NCBI GenBank assembly: GCA_965215565.1
Contig: CBDCDZ010000004.1
Coordinates: 2,368,001-2,432,000, forward strand
Length of the DNA stretch: 64,000 bases
Source of the DNA: Trueperaceae bacterium
GTDB taxonomy: Bacteria > Deinococcota > Deinococci > Deinococcales > Trueperaceae
Direction: 5' to 3'
Position numbers and translations under genes: made by a program. Of the stretch, positions 9,831 to 61,500 are shown one piece after another. How positions within the stretch are numbered: position 1 is the first letter of the stretch; every line of letters starts with the position of its first letter. The notes beneath the pieces are model-generated. The model saw only the letters and a list, made by a program, of their open reading frames with translations, was not told the origin of the DNA and did no database searches.

Positions 9831-10364
9831 ATGCTCCGCCGTCACGCTCTACCTTGTTCCCCACATAATGATTTACATGACGACCCGCACAATGACCTGC
9901 GCGACAGCTTTTACAGTAACCTCGTATCACGCTGCACCCTCGCCCTACTCGAGCGCTATTTCACCTGGCGCACGCTCGGCCTGCTCGCCTCTTGTCTGCG
10001 CCTAAGCAAACAAGAGGTTGAGACGGTCGTTCGCTACGCCGGCAGCTTGGAGGGACTCGAGGACCTCAGCTTGCAGGATTTAGAAGGGAGTGGCGTTAGC
10101 GAAAGCGCGGCGCAGAAGCTCTTCTACTTCGCGCAGTGGGACAAGCTTCAGCGTCACCTAGAATGCTACGACGCCCTGCCGGAGGACGCTGACCTCAGCG
10201 CACTTCTCGCTACCTTGACACCTATCCGCGAACGTCACTTTCGGCGCGCGCACATAAGTGCGTCGCTCATCGCTAGCTACAGGGCGTACCTCCGACATAT
10301 AGCAAGTATCATTTGGTTTGAAACGCTCTCACGATGTAGAACACCGTGCAGCACGCACATTTGA
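9831..10364 (+). CDS. Hypothetical protein with an HhH-like segment; C-terminus encoded by repeat copy A
   Basis: YAGSLEGLEDLSLQDLEGSGVSESAAQKL resembles a helix-hairpin-helix; last 21 aa lie in the repeat. Confidence 0.5.
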   Translation: MLRRHALPCSPHNDLHDDPHNDLRDSFYSNLVSRCTLALLERYFTWRTLGLLASCLRLSKQEVETVVRYAGSLEGLEDLSLQDLEGSGVSESAAQKLFYFAQWDKLQRHLECYDALPEDADLSALLATLTPIRERHFRRAHISASLIASYRAYLRHIASIIWFETLSRCRTPCSTHI

Positions 10365-10410
10365 GAATGATACTTGCGCTATTCCAATCAGTACTTATGT
10401 TAATTGCTAT
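10299..10410 (+). mobile_element. TAGCA repeat family (MITE-like), copy A, 112 bp
   Basis: ATAGCAA...TTGCTAT ends; internal stem GCAAGTATCATT/AATGATACTTGC; near-identical reverse copy at 24643-24754. Confidence 0.85.
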
Positions 10411-11856: not shown

Positions 11857-12016
11857 ATAGCACTTCTAGAACTTACTGAGACAGATTGCCGCAGATCTCT
11901 GTCCGCAAGGACTAGCGGGATTTCATCTCTGAAAGTGGGTGCTCATCAATGCTTTCTACAGTGAGAGTGTTGCTTTGCAAAACTTACGTACACTCAAACC
12001 AGATGATACCTGCTAA
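11857..12016 (-). mobile_element. TAGCA repeat family copy C, with two micro-insertions
   Basis: Ends ...CAAACCAGATGATACCTGCTA; aligns to copies D and K. Confidence 0.8.
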
Positions 12017-12239: not shown

Positions 12240-12352
12240 ATAGCAGGTATCATCTGGTTTGAAACACTCTTACTGTAAAGAACACCATCTAGCACGCACA
12301 TTGTGAGATGACATCTGCGCTCATCTGTCTCAGTATATTTTGGAAGTGCTAT
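12240..12352 (+). mobile_element. TAGCA repeat family copy D, 113 bp
   Basis: ATAGCAGGTATCATCTGGTTTGAAAC...GTCTCAGTATATTTTGGAAGTGCTAT. Confidence 0.85.
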
Positions 12353-24642: not shown

Positions 24643-24754
24643 AGAGCAATTAACATAAGTACTGATTGGAATAGCGCAAGTATCATTCTCAAATGTGCGT
24701 GCTACACGGTGTTCTACATCGTGAGAGCGTCTCAAACCAAATGATACTTGCTAT
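24643..24754 (-). mobile_element. TAGCA repeat family copy B, 112 bp
   Basis: Reverse complement of copy A with about 3 differences. Confidence 0.85.
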
Positions 24755-29328: not shown

Positions 29329-29441
29329 GTAGCAGTTCCACGACATACTGAGACAGTTGAGCGCAAATATCATCCCTCGAAGTGCGTGCTAGACTGTTCA
29401 TCTCTCACTAAGGGTGTTTCTGACCAGATGATACCTGCTAT
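29329..29441 (-). mobile_element. TAGCA repeat family copy E, 113 bp
   Basis: TAGCAGTTCCACGACATACTGAGAC...GACCAGATGATACCTGCTAT. Confidence 0.85.
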
Positions 29442-32696: not shown

Positions 32697-32796
32697 AGTG
32701 GCTCCTTAGTGGTCACTTTTTAGTAGTTTAGCACGACTCGAGCCCCAACCACAAAAAAGCGCACCTGCCGAAACAGATGCGCCCTGATGCTAAGTT

Positions 32797-32884
32797 TGTA
32801 TCACGCAGAAATCATCTCTGAAAGTGCGTGCTAATCTGGCAGCTTAAACACCCAGAGCGTTTGTGACCAGATGAGGTTCCGCTA
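32797..32884 (-). mobile_element. TAGCA repeat family copy F, short diverged form
   Basis: GCAGAAATCATCT...AGTGCGTGCTA...GACCAGATGAGGTTCCGCTA. Confidence 0.7.
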
Positions 32885-32905
32885 GCCCAGGGGCTGAGAC
32901 CTGCT

Positions 32906-33610
32906 TTACTCACTAGCCTCATCTAAAAACTGCTGCAACTTATCCATATTCACCGCAATCGGTGCACGGCGGCGGCGGACTGCACCGTACTCTAAGAGGC
33001 GAGCCAAGCAGTGCGAGACGGTCTCGCGGGTCGCGCCGATCATCTTGGCGAGGTCTTGCTGGGTGAGGTTGAGGTCGATGACCGTGCCGCGGTCGCCTTC
33101 GTAGCCAAAGTCATGAGCTAAGCGGAGGAGCAGATTGGCTAAGCGTCCGGGTGCGTCGAACGCGCCGACTTCCGCGAAGCGGGTCTGGGCTTGCCAGAGG
33201 TTCGTGGACATGACCTGCATGAACTTCATGGCGATGCGGGGCTGCTGCTGCAAGAGGCGCTGGAAGTCGCTCTCGGGCAAGACGATGAGCGTGGTGTCCA
33301 TGACCGCTTCGGCTTGGTTGGGGCGGCGCTCGCTCGGGAGGAGCAAGAGTTCACCGAAGGTATCGTACTTGCCGAAAAGCGCTAAGATCATCTCTTTACC
33401 GTTCGGGAAGTACATGGAGATTTTGACCATGCCCTCGCGGACGAAGTAGAGCGCGTCGGCGGGGTCTTCCATGTGGTAGATGATGTCGCCCGTCTTAAAG
33501 CGCTTGTACGGGGTGATGCGCGAGAGTTCCTCGAGTTCGTCTTCGGAGAGGTCTTCGAAGAGCTGCGTGTTTTTCAGGTGCCACACTAAGCTTGGGTAAT
33601 CTTGCATCAT
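32906..33610 (-). CDS. Crp/Fnr family transcriptional regulator
   Basis: cNMP domain FGE motif; HTH LTQQDLAKMIGATRETVS. Confidence 0.95.
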   Translation of the reverse strand: MMQDYPSLVWHLKNTQLFEDLSEDELEELSRITPYKRFKTGDIIYHMEDPADALYFVREGMVKISMYFPNGKEMILALFGKYDTFGELLLLPSERRPNQAEAVMDTTLIVLPESDFQRLLQQQPRIAMKFMQVMSTNLWQAQTRFAEVGAFDAPGRLANLLLRLAHDFGYEGDRGTVIDLNLTQQDLAKMIGATRETVSHCLARLLEYGAVRRRRAPIAVNMDKLQQFLDEASE

Positions 33611-34800: not shown

Positions 34801-34851
34801 AGCTTTTAGCTATTAACTGTTAGCTAAAAGCTGACGGCTAATAGCTAAAGC
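34801..34851. repeat. Heptamer-based palindromic repeat
   Basis: AGCTTTT AGCTATT AACTGTT AGCT / AGCTGACG GCTAATA GCTAAAGC; related to 1018-1071. Confidence 0.65.
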
Positions 34852-34867
34852 AATTTTTGGTAGTTCG

Positions 34868-34951
34868 GCTAGCACGGGTATCATCTATAAACGTATGAGC
34901 TAAGCGGTGGCTTCTCTACTCATAGCGTCTGTGACCAGATAATACCTGCTA
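34868..34951 (-). mobile_element. TAGCA repeat family copy G, short form, inside the mrp operon
   Basis: GGGTATCATCT...GACCAGATAATACCTGCTA; its terminal TAG is the mrpE stop codon. Confidence 0.75.
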
Positions 34952-44520: not shown

Positions 44521-44583
44521 AGCAATCCAGTCGAGCTGGACGGTACAGTGAGCAATGAGTGAAAATCTTCAGACTCATTGCTC
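44521..44583. repeat. TGAGCAA-type palindromic repeat, shared with 61089-61299
   Basis: 35-nt hairpin with 2 mismatches to 61265-61299, plus AGCAATCCAGTCRAGCTGG at both loci. Confidence 0.75.
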
Positions 44584-44628
44584 GTTGCTTTTAACTTTTC
44601 TCAGTGCCTATTGCTCCCGGCTGAGGGC

Positions 44629-45651: not shown

Positions 45652-45755
45652 GTTTGCCTCCTTAAAAACGCTCAACAGCATAGTCGCGTGAAGTTGACAA
45701 CGTATGTAAGATAGGCGCATACTTGCGATGAAGGGTTTTTCAGCGGTCACTGCGC

Positions 45756-45866
45756 TTGTATCACGCAGATATCATCTCTAAACGTGCGCGTTGCATGGTG
45801 TTAATTTTAGTGAGAGCGTTGATGACCAGCTCCGAACGTAGTGAGACAGACTTTGATACCTGCTAT
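45756..45866 (-). mobile_element. TAGCA repeat family copy H, short form with a 24-nt insertion
   Basis: GCAGATATCATCT...GACCAG[CTCCGAACGTAGTGAGACAGACTT]TGATACCTGCTAT. Confidence 0.75.
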
Positions 45867-46203
45867 TAGCCTTGAAAGGGGGTGACGCTATGCTCACAAG
45901 GACCTTGACAGAGAATCTATATACGCGGGCGTGGCGCGTCCTCTCGTTGAATTTTTGAAGTAGCGCCACACCTCAACTTAAAATTAGGCGTCTTGTGAAA
46001 TCTGCCGTATGTGCGGTCTTGAAATGGGGTCATGATGAAGCGACCTGTGACTCGAGTCCAAGCTACAAAACGTCTTTACAGCTTTAGCCTCTCAAGAGGT
46101 TAAAACAACTCGCGAGCATCATCTTTATCAAGCACGCACGAAGTAGCGGCTTACTGACCGATTGCGTTCCTACCTAGATGATACCTCGCTCTGGAGGAAT
46201 TAC

Positions 46204-51470: not shown

Positions 51471-51726
51471 AGTTTCCCCTCCTAAACGTATGCTAGGGAG
51501 GAGCGGCTCGGATAACTGAAGGGGAGCTTACAGGATGCAAGTAGCAGAAACCGAAGAGGTCATACTCGTACGCTGAATTTATGTATACTGCTAGCGGTTC
51601 CGTCGCTCGACGCGCTCCCACTTGGTAGGCTGCGCGTAGACTAGGTTGGCACAACATCATCCACTTTATTACCTCATAGCAGACTCGTCCGCCCCTGGTC
51701 TAGCGTCTCATCCTTGGAGGTTTTTG

Positions 51727-52707
51727 GTGCTTAGTATACGCGCGCTTATCAGTCTTTTCCTTCTCACGATTCTTGCGGCGTGTGGCGGCGGTGCTACGTT
51801 CGTAGCGCCAGCAGAGGCTACTGTCAACGGTGTCACGAGCCTTGACCGAGAAACGGGGGCAGCCGAGCTTAGCGTGAGCGGACTCGACGCCAATAACGGT
51901 GTGGTGGCGAGCGGTACGCTTAGCAACGTGTCCGCTACGGTTGCACAGGCGGGGCTCGAGGTTAAAAGCGGCGTATGCGGCGGCGGACAGATCAGCGCGT
52001 TGGGTCCGGTTGTCGCCGCGTTGACTTTCGATGCGTCGCCATCACTGCAGGGCGGCTGTCTCGGCTGCGGCGCTCCTACCGATCCTTTCAGCGAGAACGG
52101 GAGCACGGTGCGGCGCGAGGGCGGCTTGGAATTTGTAGCGCGGATGGCAGAGGACGCTCGAGCGGCTGTTTCGTACTTTAATCAGAGCGCAGGTTTCGTC
52201 AACGTACAGGGCTTTACGGAGGATGAGGAGGCGCTCAGGTCAGCGGTGGTCACAGCGACGTCGCCTGAAGCGATCGGCAGCTTAACGCCTCTATGGTCTG
52301 CAAGTGTCAGCACGGTAGACCTACTAGGCGATGTTCAGGGCGACAACCGCATTGCAATCGTCTTCACCGATGGTCAAGACACGACCTCTGCTGACCCCGA
52401 TGAAGTTGCGGCGGCGGCGCGCGCTTCGGGCGTGCGGGTGTTTTACATCGGTCTCGGCGAGACCACCAACGTGAGCGAGATGATTGATATTGCGCAAGCC
52501 ACCGAGCCCAGCGGTCTCTACGTTTCGGCGAGAGACAGGTCCGAACTCCTCAGCGCGTTCGAAGGCGTGATCAACGGCTCTCAAGCCTCCGGTTGTATCG
52601 ACTTGGTCTTTACGCCCGTTCCTTCTGCTGGCGAGACCGTAAGCGGCGGGCTCACTTTCGATATTAATGGGGGCACGTTTGAGAGCGATTACGAGGTGAC
52701 GTTTTAG
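51727..52707 (+). CDS. VWA-domain lipoprotein
   Basis: GGAGG RBS; lipobox LAAC; MIDAS-like DASPS, TPLW, FTDGQD. Confidence 0.8.
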   Translation: MLSIRALISLFLLTILAACGGGATFVAPAEATVNGVTSLDRETGAAELSVSGLDANNGVVASGTLSNVSATVAQAGLEVKSGVCGGGQISALGPVVAALTFDASPSLQGGCLGCGAPTDPFSENGSTVRREGGLEFVARMAEDARAAVSYFNQSAGFVNVQGFTEDEEALRSAVVTATSPEAIGSLTPLWSASVSTVDLLGDVQGDNRIAIVFTDGQDTTSADPDEVAAAARASGVRVFYIGLGETTNVSEMIDIAQATEPSGLYVSARDRSELLSAFEGVINGSQASGCIDLVFTPVPSAGETVSGGLTFDINGGTFESDYEVTF

Positions 52708-52712
52708 CCTTT

Positions 52713-52825
52713 GTAGCAAGCATCATTTGGTTTGAGCCAGTCTCACGTTAGAGAACTTGGGCGAACACGCACATTCTTAAATGATGCTTGCGCTATCCCA
52801 ATTCAGCACTTCTGTGAACTGCTTT
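52713..52825 (+). mobile_element. TAGCA repeat family copy I
   Basis: GCAAGCATCATT/AATGATGCTTGC stem with a compensatory pair relative to copy A. Confidence 0.8.
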
Positions 52826-52845
52826 AGTTAGGCAAGTAGCGTACA

Positions 52846-52881
52846 GAAAAGCGTCTCAACATCAAAGTTGAGACGCTTTTC
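52846..52881. terminator. Bidirectional terminator
   Basis: 15-bp perfect stem GAAAAGCGTCTCAAC/GTTGAGACGCTTTTC between convergent genes. Confidence 0.8.
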
Positions 52882-52889
52882 CAGGTTGC

Positions 52890-54455
52890 CTACAGCGGGA
52901 TGTTCCCGTGCTTCTTAAAGGGTCTTTCTTCTACTTTACCTTCCAACATCCGCAGATGCCGCACGAGCTGTCTGCGCGTGTCCTTAGGATCGATCACGTC
53001 GTCGATGTAGCCGCGCCCCGCCGCCCAGTACGGGTTGTCGAAACGCTTCTTGTATTCGTCGATGCGGGCGGCGCGCGCCATCTTGGGTTGCTCCGAGCCG
53101 GCAATCTCACGGCGGTAGATGATATTCGCTGCGCCTTCCGCGCCCATGACCGCCACCGCCGAGGTGGGCCAAGCGAGCACCACGTCCGCGCCCATGTCCC
53201 TAGAATTCATCGCCAAGTACGCGCCGCCGTAGCTCTTGCGCACGATGAGCGTGATTTTGGGAACCGTCGCTTCGGCGTAGGCGTAGAGCATCTTCGCGCC
53301 GTGCCGGATGATGCCCGCGTGCTCTTGGGCGACGCCTGGCAAAAAGCCCGTCACATCCACAAAGGTCAGAATCGGAACGTTGAAGCAGTCGCAGGTGCGG
53401 ATGAAGCGCGACGCTTTATCTGAGGCGTCGATATTGAGCGTCCCCGCCATGTGACGCGGATTATTCGCCACGATTCCCACCGACTGCCCACCGAGCCGCG
53501 CAAAACCGCAGAGGATGTTTTTGGCAAACTCAGGCTGCACCTCTAAAAAGTGCTTGTCGTCCACGACGGTTTTAATAACTTCCGTCATCGGATAAGGGCG
53601 GCGCTGGTCGGGGTGGACGATGGACAGAACTTCGGGCGTTTCGCGCCCTATAGGGTCTCGAGTCTCTTGCAGTGGCGTACGCTCTTTCGCGGACTGGGGC
53701 AGAAAGGAGAGCAGTTCGCGAATCGTCTCTAAAACGCCTTCGTCGTCCGCCGCCTCGAAATGCGCCACGCCCGACTTGCGGTTGTGCACGTCCGCCCCGC
53801 CTAAACCTTCAAACGTCACGTTCTCTTTCGTCACCGACTTGATGACTTCCGGCCCGGTGATGAACATATACGACGAGCCTTTCGCCATCAGCACAAAGTC
53901 GGTCAGCGCAGGGCTATAGACCGCGCCGCCCGCGCACGGTCCTAAAATCGCCGAAATCTGCGGCACCACGCCCGAATAGATGGCGTTGCGGTAGAAGACC
54001 TCGCCGTAGCCCGAGAGCGAGTCCACACCCTCTTGAATTCGCGCACCCGCCGAATCGTTGAGCCCGACGATCGGCGCACCCGTTTTCACCGCTAGGTCCA
54101 TGACTTTAGCGATTTTCTGCGCGTGCATCTTCCCTAGTGAGCCGCCCAACACGGTGAAGTCCTGGCTGAACACGAAGACCGTGCGCCCCTCCACCTTGCC
54201 GTAGCCCGTCACCACGCCCTCGCCGGGCGCGTCCACGCCCTGCATCATCTCGCCGCCCAAGTGCTCGACGAACGCACCCAACTCCACGAAAGTTCCTTCG
54301 TCTAAGAGGGTGTGGATGCGCTCCCTAGCGGTGAGCTTGCCCTGCTCGTGTTGTTTCTTGATGCGCTTCTCGCCGCCGCCCTTCTCGACGCGCTTACGGC
54401 GCTCTTCCATCTCGGCGGTCAGTTCGTTCATCCAGGCTAAGGTATCGTCAGACAT
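52890..54455 (-). CDS. pccB: Acyl-CoA (propionyl-CoA) carboxylase beta subunit
   Basis: GKLTARER, GARIQEG, GPCAGGAVYSPALTD, KKHGNIPL. Confidence 0.92.
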   Translation of the reverse strand: MSDDTLAWMNELTAEMEERRKRVEKGGGEKRIKKQHEQGKLTARERIHTLLDEGTFVELGAFVEHLGGEMMQGVDAPGEGVVTGYGKVEGRTVFVFSQDFTVLGGSLGKMHAQKIAKVMDLAVKTGAPIVGLNDSAGARIQEGVDSLSGYGEVFYRNAIYSGVVPQISAILGPCAGGAVYSPALTDFVLMAKGSSYMFITGPEVIKSVTKENVTFEGLGGADVHNRKSGVAHFEAADDEGVLETIRELLSFLPQSAKERTPLQETRDPIGRETPEVLSIVHPDQRRPYPMTEVIKTVVDDKHFLEVQPEFAKNILCGFARLGGQSVGIVANNPRHMAGTLNIDASDKASRFIRTCDCFNVPILTFVDVTGFLPGVAQEHAGIIRHGAKMLYAYAEATVPKITLIVRKSYGGAYLAMNSRDMGADVVLAWPTSAVAVMGAEGAANIIYRREIAGSEQPKMARAARIDEYKKRFDNPYWAAGRGYIDDVIDPKDTRRQLVRHLRMLEGKVEERPFKKHGNIPL

Positions 54456-54464
54456 AGGTCTCCT

Positions 54465-54575
54465 CAGCAGGTATCATCCGGTCGTAAACGCTCTCTATGG
54501 ATCAAGCTGCTTAACGCAAACATCGTAGGCTGATACCTGCGGCAATTTTCCTCAGTTAATCTTGGAGCTACTGCT
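54465..54575 (+). mobile_element. TAGCA repeat family copy J, abutting the pccB RBS
   Basis: GCAGGTATCA/TGATACCTGC stem; CTCAG...TTGGA...CTGCT right end. Confidence 0.7.
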
Positions 54576-55844: not shown

Positions 55845-56053
55845 ATAGCAGGTATCATCTGGTTTGAGTGCGCGGAGCGATGCGAAGCAACACTCTCACT
55901 ATGCAAAGCGGTGTTGCTAAGCAGCAAACTTGCGCAACTAGCACGCACATTCGAAGATGAAATCCCGCAACGGCAGGGCGGCCTGCCCGTAACGCTAGTC
56001 CTTGCGGACAGAGATCTGCGCTCATCCGTCTCAGTATGTCTTGGAACTGCTAC
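55845..56053 (+). mobile_element. TAGCA repeat family copy K, 209 bp, four micro-insertions (one nested)
   Basis: Both ends match copies D/E; insertions at the same sites as in copy C. Confidence 0.85.
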
Positions 56054-61052: not shown

Positions 61053-61500
61053 AGTACATGGACTGCAAGACTACGCCGTTCTAAAAGAAGCAATCCAGTC
61101 AAGCTGGTTCGCGCTAGCACTTGCGAAGCAAACGAACGGTGAGTTAAAAGCACAGGTCAGAGCGAAGCTCAAATAGGTTAGAGCAAAGCTCAGTAGGCTC
61201 TTACAGGTGAGCACAAAGTGCAACGGCTTTCAGCCTTAACCTGTGCACTATGTGCTTCACCTAATGAGCAATGCGTGAAAATCTTTAGACTCATTGCTCA
61301 TTGCCCACTACTCCGCGCAGCCGAATCAAAACTTATAGCCATCCTCTCCTCACATCCCCTCAAATATTAGCCCCCGTCCCTTTTCAACAAGTCACTCGAG
61401 CGAGTAGAGTACGGGTGAATAGACCTATAGAGGAAGCAGACGCATGGCGGGACCTGCTCCTATGCGCTTTTACAGGTCTTTGACAGAAGGGACTAAACCT

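Follow-up and report, generated by a model that had tools for sequence, protein, structure and literature searches.

Correia-type MITEs are linked to IS630. The Correia/NEMIS, ERIC and RUP MITEs are short, non-coding and intergenic, reach high copy numbers and carry IS-type ends, and in all these respects the repeat described here is like them. It differs from them, however, in that its stem joins the left end to an internal arm, while in Correia/NEMIS, ERIC and RUP the two termini are joined; in that most of its copies are flanked by 3-bp non-specific duplications; and in that its stem core is common to the spacers of stable-RNA genes, in a phylum sample in which no RNase III was found. Correia transcripts, by comparison, have terminal repeats at which RNase III cleaves them (PMC10969869).

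Here, we analysed a window of 64,000 nucleotides (G000:C4:2368001-2432000) from a Trueperaceae genome (G000) of 4.49 Mb and 58% GC. The copy under study, its surroundings and its sister copies in the window are listed in Table 1. It has 13 close relatives, which differ from it at 4-13 positions each and nearly all of which have TA at both sides. The separate hairpin located between the convergent genes is likely to be a bidirectional terminator; a terminator scan requiring 5 T and a search for the promoter consensus each gave 0 sites between 52500 and 53100.

Table 1. The studied copy, its neighbourhood and its sister copies (positions are those of the window)
Feature	Position	Strand	Remark
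MITE copy, 111 bp, TA-duplicating subfamily	52714..52824	+	nhmmer 89 bits
Left target duplication, TA decayed to TG	52712..52713	+	TA in all 13 nearest relatives
Right TA target duplication	52825..52826	+	sequence
Left arm of 13-bp stem	52716..52728	+	52718-52727 is a variant of host motif AGGTATCATC
TC core, IS110 entry point in other copies (7/7 near-identical)	52723..52724	+	
Internal arm, 3' strand of stem, GATGATRCYT variant	52779..52791	+	
Right terminal inverted repeat, IS630/ISY100 type	52799..52824	+	resembles right end of TA-duplicating IS630 copies L372-L374
Upstream gene, VWA domain	51646..52707	+	stop codon 6 bp before MITE left end
Separate hairpin, A4/T4-flanked, between convergent genes, outside MITE	52847..52880	.	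by eye
Downstream convergent acyl-CoA carboxyltransferase gene	52890..54455	-	Carboxyl_trans, E 2e-189
Sister copy, TA subfamily	10300..10409	+	
Sister copy, two micro-insertions	11857..12015	-	one insertion at 11897-11921, in internal arm
Sister copy	12241..12351	+	stem with one G.T and one A.C
Sister copy, TA subfamily	24644..24753	-	
Sister copy, CTA 3-bp duplication	29330..29440	-	three G.T pairs
Sister copy F	32787..32906	-	left arm split by 24-nt micro-element at 32875-32898
Shorter sister copy	34845..34951	-	T-A replaces C-G at 11:70
Sister copy	45748..45864	-	insertion in left arm
Sister copy J	54465..54572	+	
Sister copy, 207 bp	55846..56052	+	nested micro-insertions

The repeat is almost certainly a non-autonomous MITE of the IS630 family. 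A profile search with nhmmer gave 559 matches on C4 at E<1e-3, that is about 560 copies which total 57.7 kb or 1.3% of the chromosome, and 0 matches on the reversed genome sequence. The modal length is 111 bp, copies from relatives measuring 101 or 111 bp. The element is short, non-coding and found mostly between genes: 3 of 400 left-end matches fall in called genes (a simple in-house caller, giving 3742 genes, was used for all counts of location and orientation). Its terminal inverted repeats are imperfect and bipartite, each end having TAGCA at the terminus and a further motif inward, at positions 20-25. Named records with the MITE left end are mostly from Trueperaceae; Truepera was not found among the top 15 of 514 matches of a search of the literature on MITEs, and 0 Rfam families scored above gathering in the 64-kb window.

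Among 140 module-free copies, a 3-bp duplication was found in 53 of the 87 with the commonest right end, a loosely defined group that includes 12 TA-flanked copies (shuffle mean 2.8, maximum 9), while two other right-end types had TA flanking both ends in 24/29 and 18/19 copies. The studied copy belongs to a TA-duplicating subfamily; the largest subfamily and the partner ISs duplicate 3 bp. At C4:1933083 an IS630 gene is split by a copy flanked by a CTA duplication, beyond which the reading frame continues. Target duplications, an interrupted gene and ends matching those of ISs together demonstrate the mobility of the MITE, which consists of a constant left core and a right end fitted to different IS630 clades. 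Tandem arrays with a 23-27-bp period, composed of the MITE left end and a few flanking bases, were also seen (G000:C4:179865-179946 and 1994341-1994420; L030, L077). A REP/REPIN element mobilised by a RAYT was rejected, as PF01797 is absent from G001 and G002, which carry both the MITE and the micro-modules described below, and its sole match in G000 is a domain within a 1322-aa methyltransferase-like ORF.

Autonomous partners were found in related genomes. IS630 elements with TAGCA..TTCCA..GAGAC/GCTAC ends occur in the sister genomes G001, G002 and G150, and the MITE ends match autonomous IS630 elements of these three and of G022. The last ~37 bases of the MITE correspond to the 3' end of the transposase gene plus the terminal repeat of sister-genome IS630/ISY100-type elements; the partner ISs match PF01710. 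In G000 itself no matching autonomous partner was present among multi-copy ISs or in end-pair scans. By eye, the MITE right end agrees with the ISY100 right repeat at 20/26 positions as printed in PMC2170065, which also states that ISY100 duplicates TA almost exclusively. Unlike ISY100, one clade here duplicates any 3 bp (L080-L089 and L360-L371, from G001, G002 and G150): such duplications flank 16 of the 27 IS copies with both ends visible in these genomes, as well as the 53/87 MITEs. Two IS copies devoid of them seem to have exchanged flanks, and three metagenome copies are also without them. More distant IS630 copies duplicate TA and their right ends resemble those of the TA MITE subfamilies. 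Our literature search found no report of a 3-bp target duplication in IS630 elements. An IS630 transposase acting in trans would cut and paste the MITE; the stem seems to have no evident part in this step, since copies with a disrupted arm keep intact duplications.

The left arm pairs with the internal arm, as the preliminary description of this locus had claimed: all 13/13 pairs of the studied copy are Watson-Crick and enclose a 50-nt loop (positions 3-15 with 66-78 in MITE numbering). The fold of this copy has z = -2.66 on the + strand and -2.71 on the - strand, and because these values are nearly equal, neither strand is favoured. In a set of 82 copies representing 7 genomes, 76 copies having been picked by hand from search listings, 91% of stem cells are paired and two-sided changes affect 8/13 pairs in 26 cells, a cell count reached in 0/500 shuffles, which ignore relatedness; slid-register controls gave at most 15 two-sided cells. 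When 212 copies were placed on trees, the left arm showed 65-76 changes, of which 18-23 were matched at the true partner, against a wrong-partner null with a mean of 4.8 and a maximum of 10 in 5000. These trees hold 72 of 80 hand-picked copies from six relatives, 8 having been dropped for doubtful arm register, and alignment A1 leaves out 4 of the 80. RNAalifold recovers 6/13 stem pairs, and a T-A to G-C transversion at 10:71 is present in 5/8 G10 copies vs 3/203 others.

The co-evolution of the arms proposed earlier is therefore borne out, while the individual examples cited for it are weaker than claimed. The change at 6:75 that separates copies A/B from J represents one subfamily split, shared with 14:67. 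The C-G pair of copy I arose when an inherited T.G underwent a private T-to-C change, and this copy has three such private changes in all. The sequence 'GCGGAA..TCATCT' cited from copy F is the tail of the 24-nt micro-element inserted in its left arm, not a compensation.

A bias toward G.T on one strand had also been put forward, and here the outcome differs between private and inherited changes. The stem cells of 140 copies comprise 1612 Watson-Crick pairs, 163 G.T, 24 A.C and 21 other; 143 of the 163 G.T come from three columns, the remaining ten columns having 20 G.T vs 19 A.C. Private changes are symmetric (28 G.T vs 23 A.C, p=0.58), while inherited ones are biased (14 G.T vs 1 A.C, p=0.001; private vs inherited, Fisher p=0.006). 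On two combined trees the inner-branch G.U excess was 26:2 (p=0.0007) and 20:5 (p=0.10, not significant). This lineage-level excess rests mostly on three columns, and G.G, T.T, G.A and C.A mismatches were also multiplied in some subfamilies. Sense and antisense copies contain similar amounts of G.U (39 in 30 and 41 in 35, respectively), and the MITE shows no orientation bias, either in tandem gene gaps (107 sense vs 122 antisense, p=0.35) or relative to replication (193/400). Since inherited changes are biased, private ones symmetric, and neither orientation nor sense/antisense G.U content differs, we conclude that the arms co-evolve in multiplying lineages and that resident copies mostly decay neutrally. 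Of the original proposal, the co-evolution of the arms as a helix is thus upheld, and selection on each resident copy is unsupported. The loop diverges in sequence, as had been noted, but its length hardly varies: most module-free relatives have the beginning of the internal arm at position 67.

It could be argued that the MITE stem is under no selection at all, that template switching or arm-to-arm conversion keeps the arms alike and that the G.T excess reflects a transition bias against a frozen left arm. The symmetric private mismatches, the double changes on terminal branches and the concentration of G.U in three columns would all agree with this. However, copying would remove G.T and A.C equally fast, yet the inherited ratio is 14:1; arm-mediated inversion of the MITE core yielded 0 strict cases; and the explanation does not account for the motif beside the ends of tRNA and 16S. 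We regard this explanation as the least probable of those considered.

The stem core occurs outside the MITE too. The duplex AGGTATCATC/GATGATACCT is found beside tRNA genes, before 16S and 5S and in the orthologous spacers of other genera, and is absent from autonomous IS630 ends. With up to 2 mismatches allowed, GATGATACCT lies in the 25 nt before the 5' end of 11/48 tRNA/tmRNA genes and AGGTATCATC follows the 3' end of 10/48; none is in the opposite orientation, and the expected number is 0.4-0.6. Both counts include MITE left ends, which directly adjoin ~7 tRNA genes; no right end does so. Of the 28 exact non-MITE sites, ten are within 150 nt of stable-RNA ends, a region equal to 0.7% of the genome, and other such sites lie at rplA, at rpsR-rplI and within rnpB. 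One exact stand-alone motif is located in the window at the start of a RIO-kinase gene (46177-46186, - strand).

Across genomes, a strict short-loop hairpin pattern was detected in 20 of 127 genomes of the family (Trueperaceae), 3 of 236 other Deinococcota and 0 controls; tRNA genes were present at 11 of 21 fetched family loci, and the other hairpin loci were the 16S trailer, rnpB, fusA-tuf and rplL-rpoB. In a set of 97 tRNA spacers, the motif was found in 38/89 from Trueperaceae vs 0/8 from other families. The loops of the 33 paired spacer hairpins are 5-48 nt long and unrelated to one another; the set leaves out L343 (G035), and also L301 and L353, which duplicate G000. On the transcribed strand these hairpins hold 27 G.U vs 6 A.C (p=3e-4), in a test whose cells are not independent and whose hairpins had been chosen because they resemble the motif. 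At pair 7, all 33 host hairpins have G-C, but half of the MITE copies have G.T. The 3' strand, as GAT(G/A)ATACC, stands 12-18 nt before the conserved 16S start in 9/81 genomes of 5 genera (by eye), and a degenerate 5' partner precedes 16S in these 9 motif-bearing genomes. Two genomes with 0 MITE pattern matches, G034 and G072, contain the motif. The same duplex, oriented, hence adjoins tRNA, 16S and 5S ends in several genera. Its position on the strand of tRNA spacers that is transcribed, where G.U outnumbers A.C by 27:6, points to RNA, and we consider it probable that the helix is an RNA helix.

Several observations made at these loci are given here in their own right. In most Trueperaceae genomes, and in G025, G150 and G151, a different element (GG..stem-AGCC-ATAA-stem) precedes 16S, and the motif is restricted to part of one family; by eye this other element resembles an H-type pseudoknot, and in the motif-bearing subclade the hairpin replaces it. 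The single 16S and 23S-5S genes of G000 are unlinked (C4:3583126-3584634 and 2580613-2583537). Its 23S has a long leader-trailer stem that does not contain the motif, though a search for RNase III found none. At G000:C4:1412720-1413200 lies a group of degenerate tRNA-like sequences, called by ARAGORN as Glu, Gln and Lys, which have odd ends and do not resemble the tRNA operons of the host. A second repeat family with its own inverted ends (G000:C4:2019, 11661, 1590578 and others) gave 33 pattern matches, some of which are this MITE, and has the motif just inside its left end; in G002 one of its copies interrupts the start of an IS110 gene (L152). Near position 1500 of L306 (G020), the reading frame of an apparent hemB runs through a perfect palindrome of the motif, in the manner of Rickettsia palindromic elements. 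A third palindromic family with TGAGCAATG ends is present in the window (44549-44588 and 61265-61304) and hosts micro-insertions elsewhere in the genome.

The arms could, alternatively, be inverted binding sites on double-stranded DNA, for a transposase at subterminal sites or for a nucleoid protein, with subfamily-specific proteins explaining the concordant changes. The fixed 50-bp spacing, total lengths that lie one helical turn apart, insertion without strand bias, and positions 6 and 14, which covary as strongly as 6:75, would fit such sites. Against this, the motif is absent from the ends of autonomous IS630 elements, variability shows no helical (10-bp) periodicity (p=0.13), and the host copies combine loops of 5-48 nt with G.U on the transcribed strand; we find this explanation very unlikely.

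Given an RNA helix, the question is what reads it. Our preferred answer, which we would put slightly short of an even chance, is that the 10-bp core serves as a signal read by a host protein during stable-RNA maturation. The main competitor is that the 10-bp hairpin is a selfish palindromic module (REP/RPE-like) which spreads into tolerant sites: tRNA spacers, RNase P helices, coding loops and MITEs. Selection would then act on pairing alone, and the shared sequence would result from common origin and turnover. Several copies per spacer in G000, G001, G002 and G071, a perfect palindrome both in the apparent hemB frame (G020) and in an rnpB helix (G121), hairpins of arbitrary sequence in the spacers of all Deinococcota examined, and the presence of the motif in several repeat families speak for such a module. 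However, the stem is kept while loops are unrelated within and between genomes. Moreover, before 16S the 3' strand is kept with a degenerate 5' strand and a similar distance to the mature end in 9 genomes, and the bare hairpin has no associated duplication or mobilising gene. On balance, both the selfish module and the selection on pairing alone that it entails seem unlikely to us.

A helix that protects transcripts from termination would also produce part of this distribution. According to this explanation the motif is an antitermination or anti-Rho signal, not one for cleavage, and MITEs carry it to avoid polar effects; the sites do cluster in untranslated parts of very highly transcribed units (tRNA/rRNA spacers, fusA-tuf, rplA-rplJ, rplL-rpoB). 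The spacing of 4-18 nt from mature 5' ends, however, would better fit a maturation signal, and we judge antitermination quite unlikely.

Probing for RNase III cleavage of the hairpin had been suggested initially. Such cleavage is not supported, because the RNase III domain (PF00636) was found in 0 of 251 Deinococcota genomes; PF14622 was likewise found in 0/5 genomes, with controls positive in 8-9/14. D. radiodurans is named in PMC8708148 as the exception among bacteria in lacking RNase III. For Mini-III of B. subtilis, a preference for ACC^U is reported (PMC4357697). Similarly to RNase III and Mini-III stems, the helix adjoins mature rRNA ends, and its core contains AGGU/ACCU. Unlike in those systems, neither enzyme domain was found here, and the helices are local hairpins while RNase III/Mini-III stems join leader and trailer. 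The ACCU likeness is a lead only, since Mini-III was not found. Nor can the motif be a phylum-wide substitute for RNase III, because it is restricted to part of one family.

The left arm is itself a target of other elements. Seven of seven near-identical IS110 copies, encoding a 312-aa recombinase (PF01548 + PF02371; DEDD and Tnp domains), are inserted in MITE left arms with a TC core on both sides. The 5' non-coding end of this IS110 folds strongly (z=-3.5) and contains guides that match the target on either side of the core. In G071 a homologue with 75% identity carries altered guides and is inserted 3 bp further along the same arm in 3/3 copies; guide and target change together in G071 (3/3) and in G066. 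A bridge-RNA IS110 thus targets the MITE left arm. Like IS621, ISPpu9 and ISPpu10 as presented in PMC11208160, it has a 2-nt core, and its 5' non-coding end holds one guide for each side of the target, both of which differ where the target differs. It differs from them in its target, here the end of an IS630 MITE, there REP, and in that two TC cores, lying 3 bp from each other within one arm, are used among its homologues. In an ISPpu10 preprint (bioRxiv 10.64898/2026.03.19.712850), the stem-loop of the target is described as an extra determinant. IS110 as the MITE's own transposase was rejected, because the IS bodies are near-identical (99.9%) while the MITE halves around them differ.

The MITE also carries nested 21-25-bp hairpin insertions at four fixed sites, and such micro-elements occur in other repeats and in an IS630 gene as well. 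Micro-element C inserts immediately before the TC core of the left arm (52723..52724 equivalent), and one type is found in both arms, each time oriented as the arm is. Its loops are C(G/A..A)G in 87 of 100 hairpins and the complement in 0. GCGNAGC/GCGNNAGC is described as a stable DNA mini-hairpin (PMC13037366), and since the C(G/A..A)G loops fit it, the sequences suggest that micro-elements may pass through a single-stranded DNA stage. Micro-elements were also noted in the window at 11897-11921, 32875-32898 and 55969-55995, with GNA/GNNA loops genome-wide, and a 22-bp one frameshifts the IS630 gene in L087-L089. A search for their mobilising gene identified none, with 0 PF01797 in G001 and G002, both of which have micro-modules. 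At G000:C4:3784710-3788675 (L001), the 1322-aa ORF resembling a restriction-modification methyltransferase has an embedded HUH Y1 (RAYT-like) domain adjoining short peptide repeats. Small dispersed repeats (SDR) were reportedly described in cyanobacteria by Elhai et al. in 2008. The micro-insertions, and these only, seem to resemble SDRs, SDR5 (PMC4390886) among them, in being 21-27-nt nested hairpins at precise sites. They differ from them in phylum and in sequence, loops here being mostly C(G/A..A)G.

Taken together, these results can be arranged into a working mechanism. The left 78 bases of the MITE bring along the co-evolving helix, with a 10-bp core that is the same as that of the hairpins beside host tRNA and rRNA genes. 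A transcript running through an insertion might then be handled like a normal tRNA spacer, being either cut or set aside. As a proposed consequence, insertions near stable-RNA genes and between genes would be tolerated and helix-keeping lineages would multiply, because their read-through transcripts are treated as tRNA spacers, with most resident copies later decaying neutrally. A more comprehensive scenario, which we offer tentatively and believe less than the maturation signal itself, is that a sequence-specific RNA-helix signal, GAUGAUACCU/AGGUAUCAUC, arose in a lineage devoid of RNase III, where it is read by a nuclease that separates and matures tRNA, 16S and 5S precursors; that at least 2 unrelated mini-transposon families captured it and so neutralise their own insertions at the RNA level; and that an RNA-guided IS110 and 21-25-nt DNA mini-hairpins parasitise the site.

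The main interest of these observations is a host RNA motif with a candidate function, shared with a MITE where no RNase III was found. This MITE family may represent a natural case of a mobile element carrying a host RNA signal, and it also offers an IS630 clade whose target duplications are 3 bp long, a set of IS110 elements in which guides and targets have changed in step, and mobile hairpins of very small size. Finally, the 10-bp helix at tRNA and 16S ends provides a concrete substrate for finding the stand-in for RNase III in this lineage, possibly a sequence-specific dsRNA nuclease.
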